DNA from: a bacterium
GTDB taxonomy: Bacteria; Bacteroidota; Bacteroidia; Bacteroidales; Bacteroidaceae
DNA length: 40,546 nucleotides
NCBI GenBank assembly: GCA_963618035.1
Contig: CAVERK010000001.1
Span: 1 to 40,546, forward strand
Reading direction: 5' to 3'
Under the pieces are notes generated by a model. It saw nothing but the letters and a program-made list of their open reading frames with translations. It was not told where the DNA came from and searched no databases. Positions within the stretch are counted from its first letter, which is position 1; every line of letters starts with the position of its first letter. Below are positions 10,270-40,546 of this stretch, in pieces. The position numbers and the translations under genes are program-made.

Positions 10270-10523
10270 TTCTATGGATGACCATTCATAGGTTCTCTGG
10301 TTGAACGTCCATAGGTTCTCTGGTTGAACGTCCATAGGTTCTCTGGTTGAACGTTCAGAGGTTCTCTGGTTGAACGTTCAGAGGGTCTATGACTGAACGT
10401 TCAGAGGCCGTGTCTGTGGTTGAACGTTCATAGGTTCTGTGACTGACCGTTCACAGCTCTATGGTTGACCATTCACAGCTCTGTGGTTGACCATTCATAG
10501 ACACACTGATTTTCAGTAACTTA
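10270..10523. repeat. Tandem array of ten 22-23 bp palindromic units plus a CTGATTTTCAG-n4-TTA tail (family A, copy 1)
   Basis: Units such as ttctctggttgaacgtccatagg start at 10270, 10293, 10316, 10339, 10362, 10385, 10412, 10435, 10458 and 10480; tail at 10506-10523. Confidence 0.95.
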
Positions 10524-10580
10524 GCTGCACGCTTTGCGCCGCCCTCCAATGCCCGACTGGGATAATAAATGTGAAAGCCC

Positions 10581-10611
10581 TTTGCCCATGTGTCGCATTT
10601 CCGTAACTTTG
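10581..10611 (+). promoter_or_regulatory. Bacteroidetes sigma-A promoter for the PBP1a operon
   Basis: TTTG (10581-10584), 19-bp spacer, TAACTTTG (10604-10611). Confidence 0.8.
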
Positions 10612-10655
10612 TGCACTTATCGGAGAAAACAAAACCTTACTGTACACACACAGTT

Positions 10656-12974
10656 ATGCTAAAGAAAACGCTAATAGCCCTATGGGTGCTCTTCTTCCTC
10701 GGCATGGCCGGCTGCGCACTGGTGTTCGTGGCCATATCGAAGGGATGGATAGGCTACATGCCTGCCATCAAGGATCTGGAGAACCCCACATACAAGTTTG
10801 CGACACAGGTCATATCCGAAGACGGGGAGACGCTGGGCACGTACTCATACAGCACGGACAACCGTGTCTACGTGGGCTTCAACGAGTTGTCTGACAACAT
10901 CGTCAACGCACTTGTCGCCACCGAGGACGTGCGCTTCCGCAACCACTCCGGCATTGATGCCATTGCGCTGGTGCGTGCCATCGTGAAGCGCGGCATACTG
11001 ATGCAGGCCAATGCCGGCGGCGGCAGCACCATCACGCAGCAGCTGTCCAAGCAGCTGTATTCGCCGAAGGCGGACAACGCCATGGAACGCCTGTTCCAGA
11101 AGCCGATAGAGTGGGTAATCGCCGTGGAGTTGGAACGCTACTACACGAAGGAAGAGATACTGACGATGTATCTCAACAAGTTCGACTTCCTGAACAACGC
11201 TGTGGGCATAAAGACTGCGGCGCACACATACTTCAACTGTACGCCCTCGGATCTGAAGGTGGAAGAGGCTGCCACGCTGGTCGGCATGTGCAAGAACCCT
11301 TCGCTCTACAACCCCGTGCGCTTCAACGAACGCTCGCGCAGCCGCCGCAATGTGGTGCTCGACCAGATGCGCAAGGCTGGGTACATCACGGGCCGCGAGT
11401 GCGACTCCCTGCAGGCACTGCCGCTGGAGCTGCACTACAACCGCGTGGACCACAAGGAAGGCGTGGCGACATACTTCCGCGAGTACCTGCGCGGCGTGCT
11501 GACGGCCAAGAAGCCGGTCAAGTCCCAGTATCGCGGATGGCAGATGCAGCAGTTCTATGAGGACTCACTCGACTGGGAGACGAATCCGCTCTTCGGGTGG
11601 TGCGAGAAGAACACAAAGAACGACGGATCGAAGTACAACCTCTACACCGACGGACTGAAGATCTACACCACTATAGATTCACGCATGCAACGCTATGCCG
11701 AGGAGGCAGTGACCGAGCATCTCAAGGATCTCCAGGCACAGTTCTTCAGGGAGAAGCGCAGGTCGAAGACCGCTCCCTTCACCTCACAGCTCACAGCCGA
11801 GCAGGTGAAGGACATCATGGACCGTGCCGTGCGCCAGTCGGACCGCTACCGCACGATGAAGAAGGCGGGAGCTACGGATGCGGAGATTGACAAGGCATTC
11901 AACACGCCGCAGCAGATGACCGTGTGGAGCTGGGACGGCGAGCGCGACACGGTGATGACACCGCTCGACTCCTTACGCTACTACAAGTATTACCTGCGTG
12001 CAGGATTCATGTCGATGGATCCGAGAAACGGACGCGTGAAGGCGTATGTCGGCGGACCGAACTACTATTACTTCCAGTACGACATGGCCATGAAAGGCCG
12101 TCGTCAGGTAGGCTCCACGGTGAAGCCGTATGTCTACACGCTGGCCATGGAGAACGGCTTCTCGCCCTGCGACGAGGCCAAGCACGTCTCCTATACGCTG
12201 ATCGACGAGAACAACCGCCCCTGGACTCCGCGCAATGCCAGCAACAAGCTGATCGGTGAGATGGTGACGCTGAAGTGGGGGCTTGCAAACTCCGACAACT
12301 GGATAACGGCATACCTCATGAGCAAGCTGAGCCCCTACAGTCTGAAGAGGCTCATACAGAGCTTCGGCGTGCGCAACCAGGCCATTGAGCCGACCGTGTC
12401 GCTGTGTCTCGGACCGTGCGAGATCTCCGTCGGCGAGATGGTGAGTGCCTATACGGCGTTCCCGAACAAGGGAATACGTGTTGCGCCGGTGTTCGTGTCG
12501 AGGATTGAGGACAACGACGGCAACGTGCTGGCAACGTTCGCACCGGAGATGGACGAGGTAATCAGTGCGGAGAGTGCGTACAAGATGCTGGTGATGCTGC
12601 GTGCCGTTGTGAACGAGGGCACCGGCGGACGTGTGCGCCGTCTGGGCTTCAAGGCCGACATGGGCGGCAAGACAGGTACGACCAACTCGAACTCCGACGG
12701 CTGGTTCATGGGCTTCACGCCTACGCTGGTGTCGGGATGCTGGGTCGGCGGGGAGAACCGCGACATACACTTCGACACCATGCAGTATGGTCAGGGAGCA
12801 TCCATGGCATTGCCGATATGGGCAAACTACATGCTCAAGGTCTATGCTGACAAATCACTGGGCTACGACGAGAACGACACGTTCGTCTTCCCCGAAGACT
12901 ATGACCCGTGTGCCGGCGACAGCCATCTGACAAAGGAGGATGTGTCGATTGGGCTTGACGAGATATTTGAATAA
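10656..12974 (+). CDS. mrcA: Class A penicillin-binding protein 1A (transglycosylase/transpeptidase)
   Basis: N-terminal TM anchor; GT51 motifs ATEDVRFRNHSGID and GGSTITQQLSK; transpeptidase motifs GSTVK (SxxK), SDN and KTGT. Confidence 0.92.
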   Translation: MLKKTLIALWVLFFLGMAGCALVFVAISKGWIGYMPAIKDLENPTYKFATQVISEDGETLGTYSYSTDNRVYVGFNELSDNIVNALVATEDVRFRNHSGIDAIALVRAIVKRGILMQANAGGGSTITQQLSKQLYSPKADNAMERLFQKPIEWVIAVELERYYTKEEILTMYLNKFDFLNNAVGIKTAAHTYFNCTPSDLKVEEAATLVGMCKNPSLYNPVRFNERSRSRRNVVLDQMRKAGYITGRECDSLQALPLELHYNRVDHKEGVATYFREYLRGVLTAKKPVKSQYRGWQMQQFYEDSLDWETNPLFGWCEKNTKNDGSKYNLYTDGLKIYTTIDSRMQRYAEEAVTEHLKDLQAQFFREKRRSKTAPFTSQLTAEQVKDIMDRAVRQSDRYRTMKKAGATDAEIDKAFNTPQQMTVWSWDGERDTVMTPLDSLRYYKYYLRAGFMSMDPRNGRVKAYVGGPNYYYFQYDMAMKGRRQVGSTVKPYVYTLAMENGFSPCDEAKHVSYTLIDENNRPWTPRNASNKLIGEMVTLKWGLANSDNWITAYLMSKLSPYSLKRLIQSFGVRNQAIEPTVSLCLGPCEISVGEMVSAYTAFPNKGIRVAPVFVSRIEDNDGNVLATFAPEMDEVISAESAYKMLVMLRAVVNEGTGGRVRRLGFKADMGGKTGTTNSNSDGWFMGFTPTLVSGCWVGGENRDIHFDTMQYGQGASMALPIWANYMLKVYADKSLGYDENDTFVFPEDYDPCAGDSHLTKEDVSIGLDEIFE

Positions 12975-12982
12975 GCGAGACG

Positions 12983-14107
12983 ATGGAATACATACTGTTT
13001 ATCGGAACAAACACAGACGCGGAAGCCAACATGGACAAGGCCGTCCGCAGACTCAAGGAACTGTTTCCCGACATCAGGCTGAGCAGTGCCATATATACGG
13101 AGGCGATGGGGATGAAGTGCGTGCGCCCGTTTCTGAACCGCATGTCGCGCTTCACCTCAGACAAGGGCTACGACGATGTCCGCGCCCTGATGAAGAGCAT
13201 TGAGGCTGAGGCAGGACGCAAGCCGCAGGAGAAGGAAGACGAGATCATACGCCTCGACCTTGACATCCTGCAGGCGGGCGACAACAGGTATAAGCCCCAG
13301 GACTGGAACAGGCCGTTCGTGCCTGGACTGGTCAGGCAGATGGACATGAAGTTCCTCGGCATCATCCCTGCACGCTACGCATCAACACGGTTCCCTGGCA
13401 AGCCGCTGGCACAGCTGGGGGGCAAGCCCGTGATACAGAGAGTGTACGAACAGGTCGCCGGCGTGCTCGACGATGTCTGTGTGGCTACCGACGACGAGCG
13501 TATCTGCAGTGCGGTAGAGGCCTTCGGCGGCAAGGTGGTCATGACATCGGCAAGCCATCGCAGTGGCACCGACCGCTGCCATGAGGCAGCACAGAAGATT
13601 GGCGGCGACTTCGACGTGGTGGTCAACATTCAGGGCGACGAGCCGTTTATCCGTCCTTCGCAGATAGAGACCGTCAAGGCCTGCTTTGCAGACACCAACA
13701 CACGCATCGCCACACTCGTCAAGCCGTTCACTGCCGGTGACGGGTTCGCTGCGCTGGAGAACGTCAACTCGCCGAAGGTGGTCGTCGACAAGGATATGAA
13801 CGCCCTGTACTTCAGCCGTTCCATCATCCCCTTCCAGCGCAATGCCGACAGGGCGGACTGGCTCAAGAACCACACCTACTACAAGCACATAGGTCTGTAT
13901 GCCTACCGCATGGAGACGCTGTCCGAGATAACGCGACTGCCGCAGTCGGCACTGGAGATTGCCGAGTCGCTGGAGCAGCTGCGGTGGATAGAGAACGGCT
14001 ACCGCATAAAGGTGGGCATCAGCGATGTGGAGACAATAGGCATTGACACGCCGCAGGACTTGCAGCGTGCCGAAGAGTTCCTGAAAACAACACCAAGACC
14101 GATATGA
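12983..14107 (+). CDS. kdsB: Fusion of an HPPK/FolK-like domain (aa 1-121) and 3-deoxy-manno-octulosonate cytidylyltransferase KdsB
   Basis: N part: IGTN, FLN, GR...RLDLDIL. C part from ATG 13346: MKFLGIIPARYASTRFPGKPL, SGTDR, NIQGDEP, YFSR, KHIGLYAY, ESLEQLRW, IDTPQDL. Confidence 0.9.
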   Translation: MEYILFIGTNTDAEANMDKAVRRLKELFPDIRLSSAIYTEAMGMKCVRPFLNRMSRFTSDKGYDDVRALMKSIEAEAGRKPQEKEDEIIRLDLDILQAGDNRYKPQDWNRPFVPGLVRQMDMKFLGIIPARYASTRFPGKPLAQLGGKPVIQRVYEQVAGVLDDVCVATDDERICSAVEAFGGKVVMTSASHRSGTDRCHEAAQKIGGDFDVVVNIQGDEPFIRPSQIETVKACFADTNTRIATLVKPFTAGDGFAALENVNSPKVVVDKDMNALYFSRSIIPFQRNADRADWLKNHTYYKHIGLYAYRMETLSEITRLPQSALEIAESLEQLRWIENGYRIKVGISDVETIGIDTPQDLQRAEEFLKTTPRPI

Positions 14108-15387
14108 CAGACCGCCGTACACCGCCGCCGTTGAGACCCTTCGACATAAAGGACATTGCCGAGCCTGAGAAGACCGTCCTGGGTAACGGCGTGCCGCTGT
14201 ATGTCTTCAACAGCGATGCTGCCGACGTGGTGCGCATAGACCTTGTGTTTCGTGGCGGACGCTGGGACCAGACGTTCCCCCTGCAAGCCGTCTTCACGTT
14301 GCGCATGCTGAAAGAAGGGACACTGCACATGGACAGCAGCACCGTGGCAGAGCGGCTCGACTTCTACGGAGCATGGCTCGAACACTACGTCACACACTCG
14401 CGCTCGGTGCTCACGCTCTATTCCCTCAATTCATATCTGCCGCAGACGCTCGACGTGCTGGAGCAGATGGTCAAGGAGCCGGCGTTCAACGACGACCGCC
14501 TGCAGACCGTGATTGGAATGAACATCCAGCGTTTCGTCGTCAACGAACGCCGCACCGACTGCAAGGCACAGCGCAAGCTCATGAACGCACTGTTCGGAGA
14601 CCGTCATCCCGAAGGACATTCCCTGACGGTCGAGGACTACAAGGCCGTCAATGCAGATATGCTGCGGCAGTTCTATAAGGAATACTACAGGTCGGCAAAC
14701 CTCACCGTCTGCCTGTCCGGACACGTCACCGACGACTGCCGGCATCGTGTCTCGGCCATCTTCGGCACACCCTTCGGCATGCAGACGGCAGGGAGCAGGA
14801 TGCACATGTGGCAGCCGCAGACCGTCACGGAGAAGAGTTTCTTTGTGGAGAAGGAAGACGCACAGCAGAGCAGCGTGGCCATGGGACTGCTGACCGTTGG
14901 GGCAGGGCATCCCGACTTCCCTAAGCTGCGCATCGCCGTCACCCTCCTTGGCGGCTTCTTCGGAAGCAGGTTCATGTCGAACATCCGTGAGGAGAAGGGC
15001 TATACCTATGGCATCAGCTCGTCGCTGATAACGTGCCCCGCAAGCAACATCCTCTTCATAGCAGCCGACTGCAGCAACGAACACGCGAAGCCTCTCATTG
15101 CCGAGGTGTATAAGGAGATGGACCGCCTGCAGCAGGAACCGGTGGGGCAGGCAGAGCTGGAGACGGTGTGCAACTACATGATTGGCGACAGCATCCGCAG
15201 TGTCGAGACGGCTCTCTCGCTTGTGGACGTGTGGATAATGAACCACGAACAGATAGAACAGCCCGACCTGTTCCGCCGCTCCGTGGAGGCCATCGGCACT
15301 GTTACGCCCGACGACATAATGCGTCTTGCACGGACATACTTCTCTAAAGAGATGTTAAAGGAAGTGGTGTGCGGTCGAAAAATGTGA
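14104..15387 (+). CDS. Peptidase M16 family protein, probably a non-catalytic subunit
   Basis: Motifs LGNGVPLY, ERLDFYGA, LGGFFGSRFMSNIREEKGYTYGI; no HxxEH motif. Confidence 0.85.
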   Translation: MTDRRTPPPLRPFDIKDIAEPEKTVLGNGVPLYVFNSDAADVVRIDLVFRGGRWDQTFPLQAVFTLRMLKEGTLHMDSSTVAERLDFYGAWLEHYVTHSRSVLTLYSLNSYLPQTLDVLEQMVKEPAFNDDRLQTVIGMNIQRFVVNERRTDCKAQRKLMNALFGDRHPEGHSLTVEDYKAVNADMLRQFYKEYYRSANLTVCLSGHVTDDCRHRVSAIFGTPFGMQTAGSRMHMWQPQTVTEKSFFVEKEDAQQSSVAMGLLTVGAGHPDFPKLRIAVTLLGGFFGSRFMSNIREEKGYTYGISSSLITCPASNILFIAADCSNEHAKPLIAEVYKEMDRLQQEPVGQAELETVCNYMIGDSIRSVETALSLVDVWIMNHEQIEQPDLFRRSVEAIGTVTPDDIMRLARTYFSKEMLKEVVCGRKM

Positions 15388-15430
15388 TAAAAAGACCGTA
15401 CGTCCGCCCTTGACTATAGCGATAAAACGC

Positions 15431-15438
15431 TACCTTTG
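15431..15438 (+). promoter_or_regulatory. -7 promoter box for the MORN gene
   Basis: TACCTTTG, 43 bp before ATG 15482. Confidence 0.6.
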
Positions 15439-15481
15439 GAAACTCAAAGAACTGACACTTGTCTCTTATTCACGGTTATAG

Positions 15482-16651
15482 ATGAAGCACATATACGTAC
15501 TGTTGACTTTGCTGATGCTTGTTGCCACCACGGAGAGCATGCAGGCACAGAACAATGGCAGCAGCTTCCTCGACAGAGTGAAGAACGCCCTGTCGGGCGA
15601 AATCAAGATAGGCACATACACGTTTCCTGACGGATCCACATATACAGGCGAAATCAAGGGACGCAAGCCCAATGGCAAGGGACGCACCGAGTTCAAGAAC
15701 GGCGACACCTACGAGGGCGAGTACGTCAAAGGGAAGCGTGAAGGCTATGGGGTCTACACCTTTGCCGACGGGGAGAAGTATGAAGGCCAGTGGTTTCAGG
15801 ACCAGCAGCACGGCAACGGAATATTCTATTTCCTGAACAACAACCGCTACGACGGCATGTGGTATCAGGACTACCAGCAGGGTAAGGGTACGATGTACTA
15901 CTACACCGGCGATACCTACGTCGGGTCATGGGAAGCCGACAAGCGCGAAGGCCACGGAGTCTATACATGGAAGAACGGTTCGAGCTACGACGGCGACTGG
16001 AAAGCCGACAAGAAGGATGGCTCGGGTGTCTTCGTGTGGAACGATGGCAGCAAGTATTCCGGACAGTGGAAAGCCGATATGCGCGACGGCGAGGGGACAT
16101 TTGAATATATCAACGGAGACAAGTATGTGGGGCAGTGGAGTGCCGACGTGCAGAACGGAAAGGGTATCTACTACTTCAACACCGGCGACCGCTATGAGGG
16201 CGACTATGTTGACGGCGAGCGTACAGGCTCGGGCATCTACACCTATGCCAACGGCAACAAGTATGTGGGAGAGTTCAAGGACGGCACCCAAGACGGACAA
16301 GGAACGTTCACATGGGAGACGGGAGCCGTCTATGAAGGGCAGTGGAAAGATAACCAGCGTTGCGGCACGGGTACTTACAGATGGAAGAACGGCGATGTAT
16401 ATGAGGGTGAGTGGAAGGACAACACCTTCAATGGCGAAGGCTCTCTGACGCTTGCCGACGGCACAAAATACAAGGGTGGCTTTGTCAACGGAAAGGAAGA
16501 CGGCAAGGGCATAAGGATAGACAAGGACGGTGTACGCTTCGACGGCTCATTCAAGGAAGGCAAGAAAGACGGTCCCTTCGTCGAGACAGACAAGGACGGA
16601 AAGGTGATACGTCAGGGCACTTTCCGCATGGATGTGTTGCAGAACAACTAA
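15482..16651 (+). CDS. Exported MORN-repeat protein (~14 repeats)
   Basis: Signal peptide followed by 14 consecutive 23-aa repeats of the form YxGxWxxxxxxGxGxxxxxxG. Confidence 0.92.
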   Translation: MKHIYVLLTLLMLVATTESMQAQNNGSSFLDRVKNALSGEIKIGTYTFPDGSTYTGEIKGRKPNGKGRTEFKNGDTYEGEYVKGKREGYGVYTFADGEKYEGQWFQDQQHGNGIFYFLNNNRYDGMWYQDYQQGKGTMYYYTGDTYVGSWEADKREGHGVYTWKNGSSYDGDWKADKKDGSGVFVWNDGSKYSGQWKADMRDGEGTFEYINGDKYVGQWSADVQNGKGIYYFNTGDRYEGDYVDGERTGSGIYTYANGNKYVGEFKDGTQDGQGTFTWETGAVYEGQWKDNQRCGTGTYRWKNGDVYEGEWKDNTFNGEGSLTLADGTKYKGGFVNGKEDGKGIRIDKDGVRFDGSFKEGKKDGPFVETDKDGKVIRQGTFRMDVLQNN

Positions 16652-17634: not shown

Positions 17635-17688
17635 ATTCTTCGGAGTACACCTTATATAATATGTATACCGACTGCTAAGATAGCGATT

Positions 17689-18129
17689 TTATTCCATGCT
17701 GTCATCGTCATCATCGCCGTCGGCGTCATCGTCGAAATCCATGTCTCCCCAAAACACCGGCTGCGTGAAGTCTTCCAGCTCCCTGCGGTCTTTCTTCGTG
17801 GGACGTCCCGTGCCTTTGGCGCGGTTCACGAACCCGCTTATCTTGCTCATCTCCAGGATTTCCATCTGGTCGGGAGCTGTGATGTTGTCAAGCATCTCAG
17901 GCACTGATTTCGCTCCCACGCGCTTCTCAATGGCTTGCTTGATGCGGAATGTGTATGTGATTGGCGGTTTGCGCACGCTGACCTCGTCGCCTTCCTTCAC
18001 GGTGTGTGCAGCCTTGGCCTGTGCACCGTTCACGCTGATGCGTCCTTTCTTGCATGCTTCTGCGGCGGTGCTGCGTGTCTTGAACAGCCTCACAGCCCAA
18101 AGCCATTTGTCCAGTCTCGCTGTTGCCAT
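17689..18129 (-). CDS. hslR: Hsp15-like S4-domain RNA-binding protein (50S recycling)
   Basis: MATARLDKWLWAVRLFKTRSTAAEACKKG...GRPTKKDRR, with an acidic tail. Confidence 0.9.
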   Translation of the reverse strand: MATARLDKWLWAVRLFKTRSTAAEACKKGRISVNGAQAKAAHTVKEGDEVSVRKPPITYTFRIKQAIEKRVGAKSVPEMLDNITAPDQMEILEMSKISGFVNRAKGTGRPTKKDRRELEDFTQPVFWGDMDFDDDADGDDDDDSME

Positions 18130-18158
18130 CTCTCCTTCTGTATTCTCTCTTGCCGTTC

Positions 18159-18725: not shown

Positions 18726-18787
18726 GTTCTTTTCTTCTCCTTGCTCTTGTGCCTTGTCCGTGTGTCTGTCTGCCGGTGTATGCAAAC

Positions 18788-19670: not shown

Positions 19671-19681
19671 CGTTCCTGCGT

Positions 19682-20101: not shown

Positions 20102-20352
20102 CGTATTTCTGTCCATATTTGTAATCCGGACTTCAAATTTGGCCATTTTATTTCTTCCGTCAAAGGGAGAAAGCGATTTATTCTGCACTCGTTGCAATAT
20201 TGTCCGGACAAGATCCCTGCACGCGGAGAGGTATACATGCCGCAGGACGTGAATATGACCGATCTCAAACCGCATGAATTCTAAACCGAAACTTGAGCAA
20301 GAATTGTCTTCAGAGGCCGCTTGATATTGTCCAAGGAGTAGGCTCATGTCCT

Positions 20353-20438
20353 CTCACATCGTTCGATGTGAGCATTCACAACGTTCGATGTGAGCGTTCA
20401 CAACGTTCGATGTGAGCATTCACATCGTTCGATGTGAG
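20353..20438. repeat. Tandem array of four 22-bp palindromic units (family B)
   Basis: tcacaWcgttcgatgtgagcRt at 20354, 20376, 20398 and 20420. The first core, ctcacatcg-tt-cgatgtgag, is a perfect dyad. Confidence 0.95.
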
Positions 20439-20677
20439 ACGACTTAGGACATCTCCTGAGATGACTTTGATTGTCTGCTCGCATGGCAGTAACGCATTGA
20501 ACGTTTCATGTGTTGCGTTTGATGCTCTTGCGCGATGCTTCCGTTTAGTCTCCGTCTGAGTTCTGCGGATAAAATCTGTGACCCCACGAATATATCGTCG
20601 GAATTGCCGTATTCTGCCGCAAAAACTTGTGTACTTTTGCTCCGACTATATAAAAGGATATTAGAGGATTATACGCC

Positions 20678-21124
20678 ATGCAAAAGATTCTGTTCGTGTG
20701 TCACGGCAATATATGCCGCAGTCCGATGGCCGAGTTCATATTCAAGAAGATGGTGGCAGATGCCGGACGTGCCAATGAGTTCGAGATTGACAGCGTGGCT
20801 ACGTCAACAGAAGAGACGGGCAATGACATGTATCCTCCTGCCAAGGCTTGTCTGAGGCGGCACGGCATACCGTTTGCACACCGTGCAGCACGGCAGATGA
20901 CGCATGCCGACTACCGGCATTATGACCGCATCTTCCTGATGGACAGAAACAACCTGCGGTGGCTGAAGTATCTTGGCATAGAAGATACTGACGGCAAGGT
21001 ACAGCTGCTTATGTCACTGACAGGCAATACGCGCGACGTGGCCGACCCTTGGTATACCGGCGACTTCGAACAGACCTACGACGACATTTGTCTGGCACTG
21101 CCACACCTGCTCACTTTCCTATAG
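20678..21124 (+). CDS. Low-molecular-weight protein-tyrosine phosphatase
   Basis: FVCHGNICRSPMAE P-loop and DPWY motif; TACTTTTG box at 20632-20639. Confidence 0.95.
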   Translation: MQKILFVCHGNICRSPMAEFIFKKMVADAGRANEFEIDSVATSTEETGNDMYPPAKACLRRHGIPFAHRAARQMTHADYRHYDRIFLMDRNNLRWLKYLGIEDTDGKVQLLMSLTGNTRDVADPWYTGDFEQTYDDICLALPHLLTFL

Positions 21125-21905
21125 CTTTCTCGAGTTCGGGCATGATGTCGTCGAGCGAGTGCGAGCGGGCCAGGATAGTTCCGTCTGCAGACAGCAACAC
21201 AACGGTCGGTATGGACTGCACGCCATACTGATAGGCTGGGGAGTTGTCGCGTCCGCCGGTGTAGATCACAGGCCATGTAATAGGCAATTCGCCCATGGCT
21301 TTGTCTATGTCTTCCTTCTTGTTCTCCCACACGTCAATGCCGAGGATATTCAGTTTGCCGCTGTACTTCTCCTTCAGTCCTGGCAATTCGTTGTTGATGG
21401 CGCGGCGGCATGGAGGACACCACGATGCGAAGAAGTCCACAAGTACCGGCTTGCCGTCGGCAAGTGTAGATGATATGCTCAGCTGCTTGCTGTCGTCGAG
21501 CACATCCGGCCCTGCTATGTCCACGTAGGCAGCACCTGCACTTGTCTTGGCACGTGCCTCGGACAGCCGCATGTAGTGCTGCACGCGTTCGTTGTTCTGT
21601 ACCAGTGTGTCGGCCTTGGCATAGTTGGTCTGCGCCGTTGCATTGTCCCACACGTTGTTGACCAACGTGTTGAAGAGTTCAATAGCCAGACTGTCGTTAT
21701 GATGGCGGTCGTAGAATTCGGCCACGACACCATAGTAGGCCGACTCGAACTCGGCATCGCTCAGTGTCGAGTCTTCCTGTATCTTGCCCAATGCAGTGCG
21801 CAGGGCTTCACGTCCCTCCTGCGCGGTCTCCACAGGTTGCTTTGTCTGGTTGCATGATCCCAATACGACAGCTGTAGCAGCTATCAGAAGTGTGGTCTTT
21901 CTCAT
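21111..21905 (-). CDS. TlpA-family thiol-disulfide oxidoreductase lipoprotein
   Basis: Lipobox VLGSC; VDFFASWCPPC; YGVQSIPT (cis-Pro); TACCTTTG box at 21945-21938. Confidence 0.9.
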   Translation of the reverse strand: MRKTTLLIAATAVVLGSCNQTKQPVETAQEGREALRTALGKIQEDSTLSDAEFESAYYGVVAEFYDRHHNDSLAIELFNTLVNNVWDNATAQTNYAKADTLVQNNERVQHYMRLSEARAKTSAGAAYVDIAGPDVLDDSKQLSISSTLADGKPVLVDFFASWCPPCRRAINNELPGLKEKYSGKLNILGIDVWENKKEDIDKAMGELPITWPVIYTGGRDNSPAYQYGVQSIPTVVLLSADGTILARSHSLDDIMPELEKAIGK

Positions 21906-22087
21906 AATCGGATGTAGTATTTGTTTGTTCCTGAGTGCAAAGGTAACAATAATGTCGGTAGCGGTGTGTTCTCCCCGTGAAAAGGCTCTTGCAAAAAAAC
22001 GCCTGTCAGGAACTTCCAAGTGGATTTTAATGTCTACTTTTGCAGCGAAAAAGCCATTGTTTTTTACAAAAGTCTTATTTTTCTTGT

Positions 22088-23014
22088 ATGATAAACAGAG
22101 TTCTTATCCGTCTGAAGGTGATACAGATTGTCTATGCGTACTACCAGAACGGAAACAAAAACCTTGATGCTGCCGAGAAAGAGCTGCTCTTCAGTATCTC
22201 CAAGGCGTATGACCTTTACAATTACCTGCTTCTGCTGATGGTTGCCATAACCGACTATGCCGCCAAGCGCATAGAGAAGAAGCGAAGCCACAAAATCCTT
22301 ACGGAAGAAGACAAGAACCCCAATATGCGTTTCGTAGAGAATGCTTTCATAGCACAGCTTCAGGCAAACAAGATGCTGAATGACTATGCCGACGAGAAGA
22401 AGCGCAGCTGGAACGACCAGGCAGACTTCGTCAAAAGCCTCTTCGAGAAGATTGAGGACAGTAATATATATAAGGCATACATGGTTGCCGACGCTACCGA
22501 CTACGATGCCGACAGGGAGCTGTGGCGCAAGCTCTACAAGACATTCATACAGAACAATGCCGAGCTTGACGACCTGCTCGAAGACATGAGCCTGTACTGG
22601 AACGACGACAAGGATATTGTCGACACGTTCGTCCTGAAGACCATCAACCGCTTTGACCCTGCGAACGGTGCCGACCAGCCGTTGCTGCCGGAATTCAAGG
22701 ATGAGGATGACCGCGACTTTGCCACCAAACTGTTGCGCTACACAATCCTCAACAGCGAGACATATCGCAAGCTGATCAGCGACAACACGCGCAACTGGGA
22801 TTTGAACCGCGTGGCGTTCATGGATGTAGTCGTCATGCAGACAGCACTCGCCGAAATCTTGTCTTTCCCGAACATCCCCGTCAGCGTCTCGCTGAACGAG
22901 TATGTCGATGTTGCCAAAACCTACAGTACGCCGAAGAGCGGAGCTTTCGTCAACGGTACGCTCGACGGAATAGTTAAGGTGTTAAAAAAGAGCGGGAAGT
23001 TGTTGAAGAATTAG
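22088..23014 (+). CDS. nusB: Transcription antitermination factor NusB (long Bacteroidetes form)
   Basis: MINRVLIRLKVIQIVYAY; C-terminal NWDLNRVAFMD, IPVSVSLNEY, STPKSGAFVNGTLD; TACTTTTG at 22035-22042. Confidence 0.93.
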   Translation: MINRVLIRLKVIQIVYAYYQNGNKNLDAAEKELLFSISKAYDLYNYLLLLMVAITDYAAKRIEKKRSHKILTEEDKNPNMRFVENAFIAQLQANKMLNDYADEKKRSWNDQADFVKSLFEKIEDSNIYKAYMVADATDYDADRELWRKLYKTFIQNNAELDDLLEDMSLYWNDDKDIVDTFVLKTINRFDPANGADQPLLPEFKDEDDRDFATKLLRYTILNSETYRKLISDNTRNWDLNRVAFMDVVVMQTALAEILSFPNIPVSVSLNEYVDVAKTYSTPKSGAFVNGTLDGIVKVLKKSGKLLKN

Positions 23015-28744: not shown

Positions 28745-30157
28745 CTATTCTTTCGGGTTGAGGTCAAAGGGAAGAAGAGATGCTTCGTCGCTGCCGTAAA
28801 TGAAGCGGTCGAAGTCGGAGACATACAAACGGTCTTGTATGGGCTTGTACTTCTCATATTCGCCATACGCTTTTGTTCTCGCCTTCTCTTGCGACACCGT
28901 TCCTGCCGAAGTGTTTGCCTCATAATCCATAGTTTCGAGGAACTGGCTGAGCCGCTTGCGCCAATCATCCATTGTGGTCACGATGTGACGCAGTGCGCGA
29001 GCTTCGGCAAAGTCAAGAAACGATGTCGTTATTCTGTTGAGCTGGTCAAGTTCTTCTTCCGACAGATAGTTCTTTGCCACGATGGTATCTGATTTCTGCA
29101 CACGTCCGTCTGGTGCGTTCTTCCACGTTGTCAGCCCCATGTGCGGATGTTCCGCATTGGCGCGTGTGTAGATTATTTCCGCTGCCGTGTGGTGGGTCAC
29201 AGCCAAGTGCATCATGTTCTGTACCATTTTGAAGAACAGCTTTGTGTTCTCGGACTTGGCGTCATAGTCGGCACTGCACTCAGCATAGATGTCGGTAATC
29301 TTCTGATAGTAACGCCGCTCTGACGTGCGGATCTCACGGATGCGCTCGAGCAAGTCGTCGAAGTAGTCCTTGCCGAAGTGCCTGCCCTGTTTCAGTCGTT
29401 CGTCATCCAGTACATAGCCTTTGATGATGAACTCTTTCAACATTGATGTCGCCCAAATGCGGAACTGCGTAGCCTGATAGCTGTTCACACGATAGCCCAC
29501 GGCGATGATGGCATCAAGATTATAGAACAGGGGAGCACGTTCCACATCGCGCTCACCCTCGGTTTGAACTATCCCAATTTTTCGGATAGTTGCCCCTTTT
29601 TGCAACTCGCCCGTTTCATAAATCTGTCCCAAATGATAGTTCACTGTCCGCACGTCCACGCCAAACAAATCGGCTATACGCTTCTGCGACATCCAGAAAG
29701 TATCGCTGTTGAAAACGACCTCAATCTTCGTCTCGCCTTGCGGTGATTTGTATAGCAATATATTGGAACTCAATGAGTTGACGGATAGCTCTGTCGTGCT
29801 GACAGACTGGCTGAAATACTCCCTTGCCTGCTTGACCAGCACCTTTCTGCTGTCCGCATTCTCTGCTATAATCAGGCAAGCCATGCGTGACAAATGGTAG
29901 GTTTCGACCTTGCGAAACGAGCCGCTCCCGAGCCTGACCATATCAACCGCGTGGTTGAAATGGTCGTCCATTTTCATGCCCTTGGCGTTGGCAGATTCGA
30001 TGGCCTTGTCGACCACACGCTGGAACTTCCAGTAGGCAGAATAGCCCATGGCACTGCTCAGGTCGCGCGAGCTCCAATATTCGTTGTTGTTCTCGTCCGT
30101 CCTGCGAATTGTGTCGAACGAGGGTTGCATCTCAGGTATGTTGTCTTTCTCTGCCAT
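28745..30157 (-). CDS. DinD/BRO-N-like domain fused to a RhuM-family domain
   Basis: N part: EYWSSRDL..GY...F..V...DHF...LSRMACLIIAENAD. C part: FWMSQKRIADLF, YNLDAIIAVGYRVNS..ATQFRIWAT, ERIREIRTSERRYYQK, HTAAEII, GLTTWK, AKNYL. Confidence 0.85.
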   Translation of the reverse strand: MAEKDNIPEMQPSFDTIRRTDENNNEYWSSRDLSSAMGYSAYWKFQRVVDKAIESANAKGMKMDDHFNHAVDMVRLGSGSFRKVETYHLSRMACLIIAENADSRKVLVKQAREYFSQSVSTTELSVNSLSSNILLYKSPQGETKIEVVFNSDTFWMSQKRIADLFGVDVRTVNYHLGQIYETGELQKGATIRKIGIVQTEGERDVERAPLFYNLDAIIAVGYRVNSYQATQFRIWATSMLKEFIIKGYVLDDERLKQGRHFGKDYFDDLLERIREIRTSERRYYQKITDIYAECSADYDAKSENTKLFFKMVQNMMHLAVTHHTAAEIIYTRANAEHPHMGLTTWKNAPDGRVQKSDTIVAKNYLSEEELDQLNRITTSFLDFAEARALRHIVTTMDDWRKRLSQFLETMDYEANTSAGTVSQEKARTKAYGEYEKYKPIQDRLYVSDFDRFIYGSDEASLLPFDLNPKE

Positions 30158-32290: not shown

Positions 32291-32329
32291 ATATTCTCTC
32301 TCCTCCTTGATGGTTGCGGTGTGCGGCTC

Positions 32330-32947: not shown

Positions 32948-33096
32948 CGTTCCTTCGGTCTCTCTCCTTTTGTCGCGGACAAAGATAGTGCAAGCCGCAG
33001 ACTGGGCAAAGCGAACCCGACCGATTTTGTTGTGCCCACGGGCAGCCCCGTTTCCACATGGATATGGCGGACGTTACAGACCACCAAAATCCGCAT

Positions 33097-33231
33097 TTCT
33101 ATGGCTGAACGTCCATAGGTTCTGTGGTTGAACGTCCACAGCTCTATGACTGAACGTCCACAGAGCTGTGGTTGAACGTTCATAGATGCTATGGTTGAAC
33201 GTCCATGGAGACGCTGATTTTCAGCTTGTTA
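33097..33231. repeat. Tandem array of five 22-23 bp palindromic units plus a CTGATTTTCAG-n4-TTA tail (family A, copy 2)
   Basis: Units: ttctatggctgaacgtccatagg, ttctgtggttgaacgtccacagc, tctatgactgaacgtccacaga, gctgtggttgaacgttcatagat, gctatggttgaacgtccatgg; tail at 33214-33231. Confidence 0.95.
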
Positions 33232-33264
33232 TGAAGGGGGTGTAGCCTAGCTGTCCGCCGCTTC

Positions 33265-35172: not shown

Positions 35173-35530
35173 TGCCGTGCGTCTGGTCTGCCGGTTGTGC
35201 GGCATCGTCGTCGCTGCCAGCTCCGTCGGCGGCGATGGTGTCCTTCAGCTCTTCGTAGAGCCGTATCAGGTTCTGTAGCCCGAAGGCTTTCATGTTGTCG
35301 TGATAGACCACGTCGATGCACAGGTCGAGCAGGTCGCTGCAGTCGCCCGTGTCGGCGGTGATGAGCGAGCGGATGTTCATCTTCAGCTTGTCGAGAGTAC
35401 CCTCATCGACGATGCCGTTGCTGTCGGTCAGGTGGTCGAACAGGCTGTATTTCCGTATGGTGGCGAGATGGTTGTCGTCGACCAGCACAGTGCGTGTGCC
35501 TTTGGCGTTGGCTTGAATGGTGTGTGTCAT
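35156..35530 (-). CDS. Conserved hypothetical protein
   Basis: MTHTIQANAKGTR...LLDLCIDVVYHDNMKAFGL; overlaps the ygiQ start; TATATTTG box at 35575-35568. Confidence 0.75.
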   Translation of the reverse strand: MTHTIQANAKGTRTVLVDDNHLATIRKYSLFDHLTDSNGIVDEGTLDKLKMNIRSLITADTGDCSDLLDLCIDVVYHDNMKAFGLQNLIRLYEELKDTIAADGAGSDDDAAQPADQTHGNAEQQ

Positions 35531-35749
35531 AACTGTCATGTCCCTTCTTTGAGACGGTTGTTGAGCGCAAATATACTCCAAATGCACCAACAAACGGCCG
35601 TCCGCAGGTCATTTTCTTCGGATTTGCCCGTACAGCCGCAGCATCGCTTGCCGCAATGCAAAAATGCCTACTTTTGCAGACGCACCTCCGGCGGTCATGA
35701 CGTTCGTGCCGTATGGATGTGCGAAAAACATCGTAGCAACGGAAAGAAT

Positions 35750-36679
35750 ATGGACAAGACAACAGACAACGTCCCGCAGGGACAACAGCCGACGGAGACG
35801 CTGCGGCTCATATTCCCGCAGAGCGCGGGCATAATGAATGAAAGCTGGATACCGCAGGACCGTGGTGCCGACACCTTGCGCCAGGGCTATGAGATAGGGT
35901 CGTCGCTGCTCGGCATGCTCATGCCAGGCGGCAGCACGGCACCGACGGTGCAGATACCGCTGTCGGAAGAAGCGAGCGACCCGAAGTCGAAGCTCGGCAT
36001 GGAGAACTATGACAATGTCCTGCGGCAGACAAAGCTCACCAGTGACATAGTGCGCCGCCATGACCCCGCACGCATCGTGTCGCTGGCAGGCGACTTCACC
36101 GCCAGCGTCGTGCCCATCGGCTATCTGGCGCGTCGCTACTTCAAGGACATGGCTGTCATCTGGATTGATGCCAGTCCCGACGTGTCCATACCTTATACTA
36201 TGGCTCTCATGGCATGGCTCGGCAAGCGTCTGAAGGAGTTCAACACCATGTGGCCGGCAATGATTCCGGCATCGAAACTGCTGGCGGTGGGCTATCGGGC
36301 GTGGAACCAGGGGCTGAACGAGTGGCAGGACAACTTGGGACTGAAAGGCGTATCGCCGCGCAACATCACCACCGACGGCAGTGCGCAGGTCAGGGAGTGG
36401 CTGCGTGGTACGGGTGTGGGCAAGGTGTTCATACACCTCGACCTCGATGTGCTTGACCCTGGGGAGATGATGTCCTCGTCAAGCCGGCCTGTAGACAACG
36501 ACGGCCACCGGCGCGGCATACGCATGCAGGAGGTCGTGCAGCTCATCAACGATGTGGCGGCGGCCTACGACCTTGTCGGGCTTACCGTTGTGGAGACCAT
36601 TCCGCGTGTGGCGTTGTCGCTGCGCACCATGCTGGAGCAGCTGCCGCTCTTCACCGATGCGAAGAAGGACGAGGCCTGA
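35750..36679 (+). CDS. Arginase/ureohydrolase-fold protein with degenerate metal ligands
   Basis: AGDFTASV (cf. GGDHS), WIDASPD (cf. DAHxD), HLDLDVLDP, GLTVVE; TACTTTTG box at 35669-35676. Confidence 0.8.
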   Translation: MDKTTDNVPQGQQPTETLRLIFPQSAGIMNESWIPQDRGADTLRQGYEIGSSLLGMLMPGGSTAPTVQIPLSEEASDPKSKLGMENYDNVLRQTKLTSDIVRRHDPARIVSLAGDFTASVVPIGYLARRYFKDMAVIWIDASPDVSIPYTMALMAWLGKRLKEFNTMWPAMIPASKLLAVGYRAWNQGLNEWQDNLGLKGVSPRNITTDGSAQVREWLRGTGVGKVFIHLDLDVLDPGEMMSSSSRPVDNDGHRRGIRMQEVVQLINDVAAAYDLVGLTVVETIPRVALSLRTMLEQLPLFTDAKKDEA

Positions 36680-36688
36680 CGGTCCACT

Positions 36689-37276
36689 TCACTCCACGGC
36701 ATCACGGCTGTCGCGCCACACCATGCGCATATATTCATGTCCGAAGATGAACATGGTGCCCTCCTGGCGGAACCCTATGCTCCTGTAGAGCCGCAGGGCG
36801 TTGGCGTTGGCAGGGTCGCACGCCAGTATTGGCAGCAGGTGCTTCTCGCGTGCTTTCTCAACGCCGTACTTCAGCAGTAGGGAGGCTATGCCGTGACCGC
36901 GATGTTGCGGGAGCACGGCCAGTGAGTCAAGGTAATACTCGCCGTCGCCGGTCTCGTCGTCCATCTTGTCGATGTCGAATTCCAGCATGTCCTTTGGCAC
37001 AAGTCCAAAGGTGCGGAGTTTCACCTCGTGGTAGCCGTGACCGTCGTAGGAGATGAGTGCCCCTGCCGGCTCACCGCCGATTTTGGCTATGACGGCGTTC
37101 TGCCATGAGTAGAGCGTATCGGTGCGGCGGCAGATGTCCGTCAGGTTCTCGTCGGGTGCTCCGCCGTTCTCCATAATGGACATCCCGATGGCTTCGACCA
37201 TCACCGTTGCCACAAATTCCACATCTTCGGCCGTTGCCGGTTCCACTGTAATAAGGTCTTTCTTGTCTGCTTCCAT
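36689..37276 (-). CDS. GNAT family N-acetyltransferase
   Basis: Motif A YYLDSLAVLPQHRGHGIASLL; motif B NANALRLYRSIGF; TACATTTG box at 37326-37319. Confidence 0.9.
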   Translation of the reverse strand: MEADKKDLITVEPATAEDVEFVATVMVEAIGMSIMENGGAPDENLTDICRRTDTLYSWQNAVIAKIGGEPAGALISYDGHGYHEVKLRTFGLVPKDMLEFDIDKMDDETGDGEYYLDSLAVLPQHRGHGIASLLLKYGVEKAREKHLLPILACDPANANALRLYRSIGFRQEGTMFIFGHEYMRMVWRDSRDAVE

Positions 37277-37716
37277 TTTGTCGGTCTCCTGTAATTACAT
37301 GTTTGTGTGTTGTGCCCGCAAATGTACAACTTCTTCTGTTGACGGCACAAGGCGTGTTCTCTGAAAGGCATCGCTTGCTGCATCTACAGGAACGGTCAGG
37401 TGAACTTTATTGCAAACTTTGCTAATTGCTCGACGTCATGTCATAATGTCATATCTGATGTGTAATGCGCTGATGTGTAGTGGCTTTACTTGTCAGTGTT
37501 GGGGTGTGATGCCTTGATTATATATGTCATCTTGTCTCATTTGGGAAAACTTTATGGATGTAGGAGGGCGGTGTTGTTCGCCAAAGTTGCATACTATGTG
37601 GCTATGAAAATTGTCATTTGCAATAAACGGTTAATAGACAAACGCTTCTCTGAACAGGCAATTTTGCACACGGAAAAATGTTGTTGTGGACGTACAAGCG
37701 TGTAGTTTTTTATCCA

Positions 37717-37724
37717 TACCTTTG
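37717..37724 (+). promoter_or_regulatory. -7 promoter box for nrdD-nrdG
   Basis: TACCTTTG, 38 bp before ATG 37763. Confidence 0.65.
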
Positions 37725-37762
37725 ACAACCCAAAGAAACAGGAAAACATAACATAAACGACA

Positions 37763-39871
37763 ATGGAAATGCAGAACTTCACCATCACCAAGCGAGACGG
37801 CAAGGCCGACAGGTTCTCGCTCGACAAGATAATGAATGCCATAATCAAGGCATTCGCGTCCGTTAACGAACCTCTTGATCTCGGCAGTCTGTCGAAGATC
37901 ATCAGCCATCTTGACATCCGTGAGGGCATAAAGGTGGAGGACATACAGAACCAGGTCGAGGAGGCACTGATGCGCGAACAGTATTTCAAGGTGGCAAAGT
38001 CGTTCATGCTCTACCGCCAGCGTCACACCGAAGACCGCGAGACACTGGAGAAGATGCAGTTCCTGTCCGACTATTGTGCTGCGTCGAACGCTGCATCCGG
38101 CTCTAAGTATGATGCCAACGCCAACGTTGAACACAAGAACATAGCCACGCTCATCGGTGAGCTGCCGAAGTCGAACTTCATACGCCTGAACCGCCGCCTG
38201 CTGACAGAGAGCATCAAGAAGATGTACGGCAAGGAACTGGCCGACCGCTATATTGACCTGCTGACACACCATTTTATATATAAGAACGACGAGACCAGCC
38301 TCGCCAACTACTGCGCCTCAATAACCATGTACCCCTGGCTCATTGGCGGCACCACCGGCATTGGCGGCAACTCCACCGCCCCGACAAACCTCAAGTCGTT
38401 CTGTGGCGGGTTCATCAACATGGTCTTCATCGTCAGCTCGATGCTGGCAGGTGCGTGCGCCACACCTGAGTTCCTGATGTACATGAACTACTTCATTCAG
38501 AAGGAATACGGCTACGACTACTGGCAGCATCCCGACCAGGTGGTGGACATGAGCCTGAGGCAGCGCACGCTCGACAAGGTCATCACCGACTACTTCGAGC
38601 AGATTGTCTACTCGCTGAACCAGCCCACGGGAGCACGCAACTTCCAGGCCGTGTTCTGGAACATCAGCTACTACGACCACTACTACTTCGACAGTCTGTT
38701 CGGCAACTTCTATTTCCCCGACGGCAGCAAGCCCGACTGGGACGGACTGTCGTGGCTTCAGAAACGCTTCATGAAGTGGTTCAACCAGGAGCGCACGAAG
38801 GCTGTGCTGACATTCCCCGTCGAGACAATGGCACTGCTGACCGAGAACGGCGACTGCAAGGACCGCGAGTGGGGCGACTTTGCCGCAGAGATGTACAGCG
38901 AGGGACACTCGTTCTTCACCTACATGAGCGACAATGCCGACTCGCTTAGCTCGTGCTGCCGGCTGCGCAACGAGATACAGGACAACGGCTTCAGCTACAC
39001 GCTGGGTGCCGGAGGCGTGTCGACAGGCTCGAAGAGCGTGCTGACCATCAACCTGAACCGCTGCATCCAGTATGCCGTGAACCACAAGATGGACTACCGC
39101 GAATACCTGAGCGACATCATCGACCTGTGCCACAAGGTGCAGCTGGCCTACAACGAGAACCTCAAGGAACTGCAGAAGTGCGGAATGTTGCCCCTGTTCG
39201 ATGCAGGGTACATCAACATGAGCAGGCAGTATCTGACGATAGGCGTCAACGGACTGGTCGAGGCAGCCGAGTTCATGGGGCTGACCATCAACGACAATCC
39301 GGACTACAAGCACTTCGTGCAGGAGGTTCTGGGGCTGGTCGAGAAGTTCAACAAGCAGTACCGCACCAAAGACACGCTCTTCAACTGCGAGATGATACCT
39401 GCCGAGAACGTCGGCGTGAAGCACTCGAAGTGGGACAGGGAAGACGGCTACCTCGTGCCGCGCGAGTGCTACAACAGCTATTTCTACATCGTCGAGGACG
39501 ACAGCCTGAGCATCATAGACAAGTTCAAGCTGCACGGTGCGCCATACATCGAGCACCTCACGGGCGGTTCGGCACTGCACATGAACCTGGAGGAGCACCT
39601 CAGCAAGGCGCAATACCGCCAGCTGCTCTGCGTGGCTGCCAAGGAGGGATGCAACTACTTCACGTTCAACATCCCCAACACCATCTGCAACGACTGCGGA
39701 CACATCGACAAGCGTTACCTGCACGAATGTCCTGTCTGCCACAGCAAGAACGTGGACTACATGACGCGCATCATCGGCTACCTGAAGCGCGTGAGCAACT
39801 TCTCCGCAGCGCGTCAGGCCGAAGCACACCGCCGCTACTATGCCGGCGAGGAGAAGCTGGTGGAGAGCTGA
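37763..39871 (+). CDS. nrdD: Anaerobic (class III) ribonucleoside-triphosphate reductase with an N-terminal ATP cone
   Basis: ATP cone ITKRDG...KIMNAIIKA; SSCCRL; PAEN; GGSALH; CxxC...CPxC zinc site; TRIIGYL glycyl-radical loop. Confidence 0.96.
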   Translation: MEMQNFTITKRDGKADRFSLDKIMNAIIKAFASVNEPLDLGSLSKIISHLDIREGIKVEDIQNQVEEALMREQYFKVAKSFMLYRQRHTEDRETLEKMQFLSDYCAASNAASGSKYDANANVEHKNIATLIGELPKSNFIRLNRRLLTESIKKMYGKELADRYIDLLTHHFIYKNDETSLANYCASITMYPWLIGGTTGIGGNSTAPTNLKSFCGGFINMVFIVSSMLAGACATPEFLMYMNYFIQKEYGYDYWQHPDQVVDMSLRQRTLDKVITDYFEQIVYSLNQPTGARNFQAVFWNISYYDHYYFDSLFGNFYFPDGSKPDWDGLSWLQKRFMKWFNQERTKAVLTFPVETMALLTENGDCKDREWGDFAAEMYSEGHSFFTYMSDNADSLSSCCRLRNEIQDNGFSYTLGAGGVSTGSKSVLTINLNRCIQYAVNHKMDYREYLSDIIDLCHKVQLAYNENLKELQKCGMLPLFDAGYINMSRQYLTIGVNGLVEAAEFMGLTINDNPDYKHFVQEVLGLVEKFNKQYRTKDTLFNCEMIPAENVGVKHSKWDREDGYLVPRECYNSYFYIVEDDSLSIIDKFKLHGAPYIEHLTGGSALHMNLEEHLSKAQYRQLLCVAAKEGCNYFTFNIPNTICNDCGHIDKRYLHECPVCHSKNVDYMTRIIGYLKRVSNFSAARQAEAHRRYYAGEEKLVES

Positions 39872-39874
39872 GGC

Positions 39875-40345
39875 GTGCTGAAGTATGTCAACACAGGGAT
39901 TGTGTTCCAGGAAATCCCTGACGAGGTGACGCTGTCTGTCAACATCTCCAACTGTCCGTGCCGGTGTCCTGGATGCCACAGCCAGTATCTGTGGCGGGAC
40001 ATCGGCACGCCGCTGACAGCAGATGCTTTGGACGGCATGATTGCCCGCAACGGCGGTGACATGACGTGCGTCTGCTTCATGGGCGGAGATGCCGAGCCGG
40101 AAGCCGTGAGCCTGCTGGCACGCCATGTGCACAGCCGCCATCCGCAGCTCAGGGTGGCATGGTACAGCGGCCGCCAGCTCCTGCCGCGCAGCATCGACCG
40201 CAGGGATTTCGACTACATAAAGCTGGGGCCGTACATCCGCCATCTCGGGCCGCTGAACAAGCCGACCACCAACCAGCGTCTGTACCGCTGTGCTCCCGAC
40301 GGCACAATGACCGACATCACCTCCCGCTTTTGGAGGAAGCCGTGA
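39875..40345 (+). CDS. nrdG: Class III RNR activating enzyme (radical SAM)
   Basis: GTG start; CPCRCPGCHS, FMGGD, WYSG, KLGPY, TTNQR; directly follows nrdD. Confidence 0.93.
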   Translation: MLKYVNTGIVFQEIPDEVTLSVNISNCPCRCPGCHSQYLWRDIGTPLTADALDGMIARNGGDMTCVCFMGGDAEPEAVSLLARHVHSRHPQLRVAWYSGRQLLPRSIDRRDFDYIKLGPYIRHLGPLNKPTTNQRLYRCAPDGTMTDITSRFWRKP

Positions 40346-40480
40346 CAACCTCCCGTTGTGATTATAACTCAAGTTTCGGATTTATTGCTGTCCGCTATCC
40401 CGAACCCGCATATCCTTCTCTCGTTGCCGGACTACTGTTTGCTGTCTCCCTCTCTCCCAGTACTCCTTTTTGTTTCGATT

Positions 40481-40546
40481 AATCGGTACTGCAGTACCGA
40501 TTAACTGGTACGCCAGTACCGGCTATATGGTACTGCAGTACCAACC
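40481..40546. repeat. Tandem array of at least three 22-bp palindromic units (family C), truncated by the window end
   Basis: Units aatcggtactgcagtaccgatt (perfect palindrome), aactggtacgccagtaccggct and atatggtactgcagtaccaacc. Confidence 0.9.

Follow-up and report, generated by a model that had tools for sequence, protein, structure and literature searches.

We analyzed contig CAVERK010000001.1 of the Bacteroidaceae assembly GCA_963618035.1 (positions 1 to 40,546 of the forward strand, 40,546 nucleotides; hereafter the window), in which a first-pass annotation made from the letters alone had noted four intergenic arrays of short dyad repeats, here called A1 to A4. On balance, we favor the reading that these are autoregulatory operator arrays bound by dimers of HU-HIG proteins, with A2 an orphan copy of such an array and A1, A3 and A4 presumed orphans of the same kind. 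The annotation had offered phased sites for a dimeric DNA-binding protein as one explanation; our data support this idea and point to the HU-HIG family (PF18291), encoded outside the window, as the candidate binder. For A1, A3 and A4, a HU-HIG partner is suggested by the design that they share with A2.

The argument centers on A2 (20352..20439, plus strand), which consists of four 22-bp dyad units of repeat family 3 (Tandem Repeats Finder (TRF) row at 20354-20438, period 22, 3.9 copies, score 149). In the assembly that holds the window (G000; 2.1 Mb, 87% complete, 189 contigs, with the window as contig C1), a HU-HIG gene on contig C52 encodes a HU domain and a winged helix and is preceded by a family-3 array. 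A2 and the C52 upstream region, array and flank together, are identical at 90 of 119 positions; judged by sequence, A2 is an orphan copy of the array before the C52 gene. The model of the C52 protein combines a HU fold with a winged helix (pLDDT 90) and most closely matches 4FMR, and A2-type arrays are likely to be its binding sites, a putative assignment.

Arrays upstream of HU-HIG genes

A search of G000 for HU-related genes with TIGR01201 and PF18291 returned four long HU-HIG genes, all with an adjacent 22-bp repeat and each repeat of a different sequence: three are arrays directly upstream of the gene, and one is a two-copy repeat directly downstream. The partner genes match PF18291 above its cut-off and carry a winged helix-turn-helix (wHTH), Ig or glycine-rich tail. 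Among relatives, TRF reported a period of 22-23 bp, or its double, at 18 of 30 HU-HIG loci versus 5 of 29 ygiQ loci. A lag-by-position map of self-similarity across 87 genes (threshold 0.60) showed a signal at lag 22, located 50-350 bp upstream of the start and reaching 40% at -150; no other lag from 15 to 33 exceeded 3%.

Counted gene by gene, a 22/23-bp array lies upstream of 58 of 73 wHTH-tailed HU-HIG genes (54/65 and 4/8 in two sets). Control frequencies were 1 of 73 for the same wHTH genes at eight other lags, 101 of 1567 for the genes of G000, and 5 of 52 for open reading frames in ygiQ loci. The count covers 130 of 141 genes, the other 11 having less than 250 bp of upstream sequence; duplicates (L064, L193-L196, L203) and the short HU gene in L165 were also dropped.

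One group of arrays is locked in phase to its promoter. Across 34 arrays downstream of a TAnnTTTG box, which we take to be the Bacteroidetes -7 promoter element, the mean dyad score peaks 45, 56, 67, 78 and 89 bp from the box. These box-following arrays have four 22-bp units in all, with dyad centers in 11-bp steps.

The motifs within the units differ between protein clades. We found that 33 of these box-following arrays, in 19 clusters (less than 70% alike; L078 left out as a spurious array) retain TCG-N4-AC-N4-GT-N4-CGA, and that arrays of the C52 clade carry a different motif, centered on CG-N2-CG. A matrix for the C52 clade was built from the arrays of other genomes, leaving out two poor fits (L088, L102) and two arrays that are family 3 itself (L004, L087). 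This matrix scored family 3 at 18.0, as high as none of 300 shuffles and none of 300 random palindromes, and gave -1.7 on the arrays of the other clade. Neither matrix served as a universal HU-array motif for the families of the window: the first fits 0 of the 18 families scored, and the second, that of the C52 clade, fits family 3 and, weakly, the array on C26 (7.1; p = 0.007 and 0.043), with no fit to families 0, 1, 2, 4-10, 13 and 14.

The internal symmetry of the arrays raises the alternative that they act as RNA or single-stranded DNA hairpins, serving as leaders, terminators or stabilizers, which we consider hardly probable at all. Four-unit arrays are indeed inverted repeats as a whole, some with at least 30 of 44 positions paired, one group lies just downstream of the promoter box, and convergent gaps are favored genome-wide (see below). 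However, the sense strand shows no surplus of G-U-type mismatches (110 vs 146), which favors double-stranded DNA, and direct identity between units (0.57-0.65) about equals inverted identity (0.55-0.70). A hairpin would have no need of a 22-bp period, and Rfam gave 0 matches across the window. On the mismatch and Rfam results, the serial RNA hairpins put forward in the first-pass annotation find no backing.

HU-wHTH genes are solo genes whose neighbors change from locus to locus. A BT4734-like gene lies upstream of 12 of the 69 HU-wHTH genes with enough flanking sequence (L045, L050, L051, L069, L070, L073, L077, L079-L081, L084, L085); in the inspected loci the two genes are divergent, with the array between them. 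Plasmid iterons are direct repeats, and four 22-bp units before a winged-helix gene resemble them. It is conceivable, if improbable, that the arrays serve a small selfish element as iteron-like origins or sites of assembly; the HU-wHTH protein would then be initiator-like, the BT4734/VirE-type neighbor would supply primase-helicase activity, and orphan arrays would be non-autonomous copies. The 12 neighboring genes fit this idea, as does the frequent adjoining of family 0 to a module of 11-bp period. The remaining 57 of 69 HU-wHTH genes have no BT4734-like neighbor, no array lies within 600 bp of the only BT4734-like gene in G000, and the dyads of the arrays, held in fixed register with a promoter, are unlike the direct repeats of iterons.

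Three further HU-HIG loci have layouts of their own. At L001 (G000:C24:5978-7564), an array lies between a glycine-tailed HU-HIG gene and a divergent AbiEi-antitoxin-like gene (a weak Pfam match, below cut-off). At L003 (G000:C27:10222-13737), the HU-HIG gene stands amid phage-like open frames; upstream of it are short direct repeats, and downstream is a family-6 repeat in two copies. This locus is possibly a version of the cassette carried by a prophage. At L164 (G364:C29, 1210-1460), in the sister genome G364, a single HU-HIG gene has its promoter box flanked on either side by a 22-bp array, and the two arrays differ.

A constant period in unrelated repeat families

All four window arrays were recovered by TRF at the places first described, on the plus strand and, by gene calls, between genes. 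A1 (10269..10500; TRF period 23, 10.0 copies, score 218) has ten units of 22-23 bp, imperfect 20-bp dyads with one half-site degenerate, and A3 (33097..33206; period 23, 4.9 copies, score 118) has five units of 22-23 bp each. A4 (40476..40546; TRF row at 40476-40542, period 22, 3.0 copies, score 79) has three 22-bp dyad units and is truncated by the contig end. Unit clustering agreed with the three sequence families originally proposed, placing A1 and A3 together in family 0, A2 in family 3 and A4 in family 2. Behind A1 and A3 stands the same conserved family-0 tail motif, CTGATTTTCAG (10506..10516 and 33214..33224, both plus strand). Units are joined head to tail, and unique spacers of the CRISPR type are not present in A1-A4.

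The arrays had all been described as dyads of about 20 bp. This description suits A2 and A4, in which 7-9 and 6-10 of 10 positions are paired; it is too generous for A1 (6-8) and A3 (6-7), both of which have a degenerate half-site. The gene positions given for the arrays hold as well: A1 and A2 lie in divergent gaps, A3 lies between ygiQ and recR, and A4 follows nrdG. The preference for promoter regions that these positions had seemed to imply fails across the genome, where arrays occupy 15 of the 42 gaps between convergent genes, 21 of the 162 between divergent genes and 27 of the 344 between tandem genes (classes from our own gene calls, which leave 123 of the 199 loci unclassed for want of a gene on one side).

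Applied to the whole of G000, TRF gave 474 rows, of which 166 have period 22 and 105 have period 23. Merging rows, including those at multiples of 22/23, left 199 array loci covering 21,371 bases, of which 195 lie outside called genes and 117 are no more than 300 bp from a contig end. On the intergenic DNA alone (293,845 bases), TRF gave 269 rows at these periods, 164 of 22 bp and 105 of 23 bp, and three shuffles of this DNA yielded a single such row between them; any other period from 15 to 30 has at most seven rows. Both the genome-wide excess and the intergenic bias that the first-pass annotation had set out to be checked are thus borne out.

The units form 44 clusters, 16 of them with more than one row, and the largest families have 73, 34, 21, 21, 8, 8, 5 and 5 loci. 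Family 0, with 73 loci, includes a second 23-bp unit type, and families 2 and 3 have 21 loci each. At least 7 of 10 positions are paired in 16 of the 44 family units, compared with 11% of shuffled units. The earlier claim that period is conserved more than sequence is also upheld: one fixed period is kept over more than 15 unrelated, non-coding families.

Spread and turnover of the arrays

Oriented copies of a family share unit order and flanks. In family 3, nearly every complete copy has four units, and column conservation over nine complete copies is 0.95 in the 88-bp core and 0.69 and 0.67 in the homologous flanks. In the window, column conservation outlines a family-3 element at 20292..20499 (plus strand), made up of A2 with degenerate, co-dispersed flanks and ragged ends. 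The left flank of A4 within its family-2 element (40384..40475, plus strand) begins with a 14-bp module (40384-40397) that has 59 copies in G000 intergenic DNA. Neither terminal inverted repeats nor sharp ends were seen in families 0, 2 and 3, in which flank conservation fades without a boundary.

Arrays adjoin each other and other repeated modules, forming mosaics. The family-0 tail motif, in the degenerate form CTGATWWWCAR, has 70 matches in G000, 46 of them within 200 bp of an array; a module of 11-bp period has 36 matches, 19 near arrays; and for one module 31 of 59 copies lie near arrays, where the array vicinity makes up 41,958 of 289,355 free intergenic bases. Short hairpins are also among the repeated modules of G000 intergenic DNA. 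At G000:C5:2-273, the last codons of a gene fragment that ends in a winged helix pass directly into a family-5 array. At G000:C23:365-922 (L126), 49 bp separate the end of a DUF6078 gene from a family-2 array, and G364 has a family-3 element there; the DUF6078 gene is possibly a partner or cargo of family 2.

G364 is syntenic with G000, most long blocks being 85-89% identical, and the two genomes differ in their arrays. The A1 site in G364 holds about 6 units (versus 10) with a further 22-bp module alongside, the A3 site holds an array whose units have switched to another variant, and the A4 site lacks the array and is filled by other repeats. Directly before nusB, G364 has a family-3 array and a HU-wHTH gene, and the thioredoxin-like gene of the A2 context lies elsewhere. 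The comparison at orthologous sites proposed at the outset found A1 and A3 present in changed form, A4 absent, and a family-3 array before nusB.

We extended the comparison to 29 array loci of G364, picked as best matches. For family 0, 8 of 9 sites are shared with G000 and one could not be assigned. For family 3, 3 of 13 sites are shared, 3 have another family near the site in G000, and 7 have none or could not be assigned. For family 2, 0 of 7 are shared, 4 have another family, 2 are empty and 1 could not be assigned. Alignment of two empty and three swapped sites showed the spacer replaced wholesale. No target-site duplication was found at any of them, the two empty/filled pairs included, in genomes that are only about 88% identical.

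Outside these two genomes the families are rare. The three-unit pattern of family 2 occurs only in G000 among 301 genomes, and the family-0 and family-2 units occur in 3 and 2 of 74 other genomes, respectively, mostly G364. Genome scans for the two families gave matches only in G364, at two places in G086, and at a single place within coding DNA in each of G065 and G367. Pattern scans for their home loci returned 0 and 1 unrelated match in viral contigs and 0 in metagenome contigs. The C52-clade motif is itself dispersed, with 42 pattern matches in G364 and 19 on 11 contigs in G365 (controls 0), and is found on two contigs of G367. At L224 (G086:C21, 1490-1600), in another genus, two family-0 units are interleaved with the 11-bp module and accompanied by a similar tail motif; the composite therefore predates the genus boundary or has crossed it.

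Such variability might suggest that dispersed copies are neutral satellites produced by slippage and gene conversion, with function, if any, confined to home arrays. The differing unit number at A1, the homogenization of A3 units within their locus, the confinement of families to very few genomes and the complete turnover of family-2 sites between sisters are all compatible with this view. We nevertheless hold it to be very improbable: slippage would not be expected to hold more than 15 unrelated families to one period, the copies of family 3 have retained four units and a core better conserved than its flanks, and 8 of 9 family-0 sites are common to the sister genome.

Mobility in trans is a further alternative. 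REP (repetitive extragenic palindromic) sequences and BIMEs (bacterial interspersed mosaic elements), and REPINs (REP doublets forming hairpins) with their RAYT (REP-associated tyrosine transposase), are intergenic palindrome mosaics, often located after stop codons and polymorphic between relatives. Our arrays likewise form intergenic mosaic clusters; unlike REP and REPIN sequences they have a head-to-tail period of 22-23 bp, and no RAYT gene flanked by them was found in G000 or G364. In G364, a Y1/IS200-like transposase gene (L261, G364:C193:708-3059) has a cluster of hairpin modules upstream; it is flanked by hairpin modules, with no 22-23-bp array beside it. By eye, similar hairpin modules lie near arrays or HU-HIG genes of G364 at L138, L147, L164 and L256. 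A REP/RAYT-like system thus coexists with the arrays in this genome.

The arrays could then be passengers or parts of non-autonomous mobile elements (miniature inverted-repeat transposable elements (MITEs), REP/BIME or REPIN-like) that a transposase mobilizes in trans, with HU-HIG genes as mere neighbors or cargo and not binders. We judge this unlikely. In its favor, families spread as fixed multi-unit elements with common flanks, arrays cluster with other repeated modules, their density is highest in convergent gaps, filled and empty sites exist, and the Y1 gene of G364 is flanked by modules of a kind also seen near its arrays. BrickBuilt, moreover, is a 23-nt minisatellite within a MITE, according to the available text of PMC4596501. 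Against it, element ends have no terminal inverted repeats and no target duplications were seen, the Y1 transposase domain (PF01797) has no match in G000 (87% complete) and has matches in 2 of 5 other genomes, and no array lies within 600 bp of the four integrase genes of G000. The phase lock to the promoter box and the clade-specific motifs would also be left unexplained. Of the REP/BIME-like elements mobilized in trans that the first-pass annotation had envisaged, the movement as units and the clustering with REP-like modules stand; no Y1 transposase was found in G000 (87% complete), the one in G364 is not flanked by the same units, and sharp ends and target duplications were not seen.

Proposed mechanism and relation to known systems

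In the operator reading that we favor, one HU-HIG dimer, with its HU domain and two winged helices, would read one dyad. The 22-bp period, equal to two helical turns, would set neighboring dimers on one face of the DNA and allow cooperative binding, and cooperative dimers over the promoter or transcription start would repress the protein's own gene. Array, promoter and gene would make up a solo cassette that can be gained, lost and traded, and gene-less arrays may be copied into further intergenic gaps by a process akin to recombination, in which they replace the spacer. Orphan arrays may stay bound, since their core is more conserved than their flanks, and may have an organizing or insulating effect on DNA. 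The partner gene of families 0 and 2 (A1, A3 and A4) may be missing from the assembly, lost, or a member of another protein family.

A number of observations weigh against this reading. Families 0 and 2 fit neither matrix, and no HU-HIG gene stands beside them in G000 or in the loci retrieved from G364, G086, G065 and G367. Family 3 does not fit the first matrix, so the motif match comes from one clade; arrays of that clade lie upstream of the promoter box at varying distance. Because arrays and genes are linked, shared ancestry alone makes the motif track the protein clade. Many of the 73 wHTH genes are close kin and were taken as best-scoring matches, not as a random draw, so that the pairing counts overstate independence, and an array precedes only 11 of the 41 HU-HIG genes with glycine-rich tails and 6 of the 16 of other types. 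The C52-clade motif has 3 matches in G366 against 4 in the control, and in G368 only the home array. At the A2 site, a contig break in G364 separates A2's left gene from the array, so the identity of the site rests on nusB. The conservation of core over flanks could stem from gene conversion. HU-HIG proteins are considered unlikely to be sequence-specific transcription factors in the available text of PMC5499826.

A broader conjecture, possible but doubtful, is that Bacteroidales use a hitherto undescribed protein-DNA code in which each HU-HIG paralog reads its own two-turn-phased dyad array, and that arrays have escaped as mobile gene-less modules filling and swapping intergenic slots over about 1% of the genome, with horizontally traded cassettes installing sequence-specific chromosome-organizing or silencing sites genome-wide. 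Constant-length 22-nt bacterial satellites would then have a first binding protein.

In ParR-parC-type operator/centromere arrays and plasmid iterons, phased sites cover the promoter of the gene whose product, a small DNA-binding protein, reads them. The arrays described here differ in having no partition ATPase or Rep protein, in being chromosomal with paralog-specific motifs, and in having orphan copies in the hundreds. We regard them as a variant of constant-length satellites and operator arrays, with a candidate partner named for one of the three window families.

Constant-length non-coding tandem repeats of 20-23 nt have been described in many bacterial groups, with no function given in the available text (Subirana and Messeguer, PMC8161180), where it is proposed that some protein depends on the repeat length to polymerize along DNA. 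As in that description, G000 has many families per genome, of one length, unrelated and species-specific in sequence, with a period of about two helical turns; families 0 and 2 are confined in this way. The repeats described there come without a named protein, whereas here there are a candidate protein family and home loci; that text, as far as available, makes no mention of Bacteroidales or palindromes. The HU-HIG clade of the HU/IHF superfamily (PF18291; structure 4FMR) was defined in PMC5499826, and our partner genes resemble its members, as described in the portion available, in their PF18291 domain, wHTH or glycine-rich tails, solo genes and fast-diverging paralogs. Unlike that account, which in the same portion reports no upstream arrays and doubts sequence specificity, our data point to clade-specific DNA sites. 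BrickBuilt of Porphyromonas gingivalis has about 20 copies and a unit number that varies between strains (PMC4596501, available text). It is similar to our arrays in its Bacteroidales host, intergenic location and 23-nt tandem unit between conserved flanks, and dissimilar in being one family with insertion sequence-like terminal inverted repeats, as opposed to more than 15 families with ragged ends, dyad units and a HU-HIG link. We found no literature pairing HU-HIG genes with repeat arrays in a search that left subscription papers largely outside, and nothing on arrays in the available text of PMC5771137 and bioRxiv 10.1101/2024.06.24.600358.

Two puzzles would meet here, constant-length 20-23-nt repeats with no known function or reader and HU-HIG proteins with no known ligand, the latter expanded in gut and oral Bacteroidales. 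If our reading is correct, a HU-family protein would have gained paralog-specific DNA recognition and spread its sites through a chromosome. The C52 HU-wHTH protein and the A2 array make up a defined pair, from a family at 21 loci in one genome. The arrays would also explain the breakage of such assemblies, given how many loci lie close to a contig end.

Beside A2, the window encodes a low-molecular-weight phosphatase-like gene (plus strand), a thioredoxin-like gene (minus strand) and nusB (plus strand) at 20678..23014. In an unrelated high-GC viral contig (L130:1470-1545), 22-bp direct repeats follow right after a small helix-turn-helix-like gene in an iteron-like layout. Elsewhere in the window, a DinD-like gene at 28745-30157 (minus strand; match under the curated cut-off) is missing from the aligned G364 blocks, representing a recent single-gene insertion or loss.

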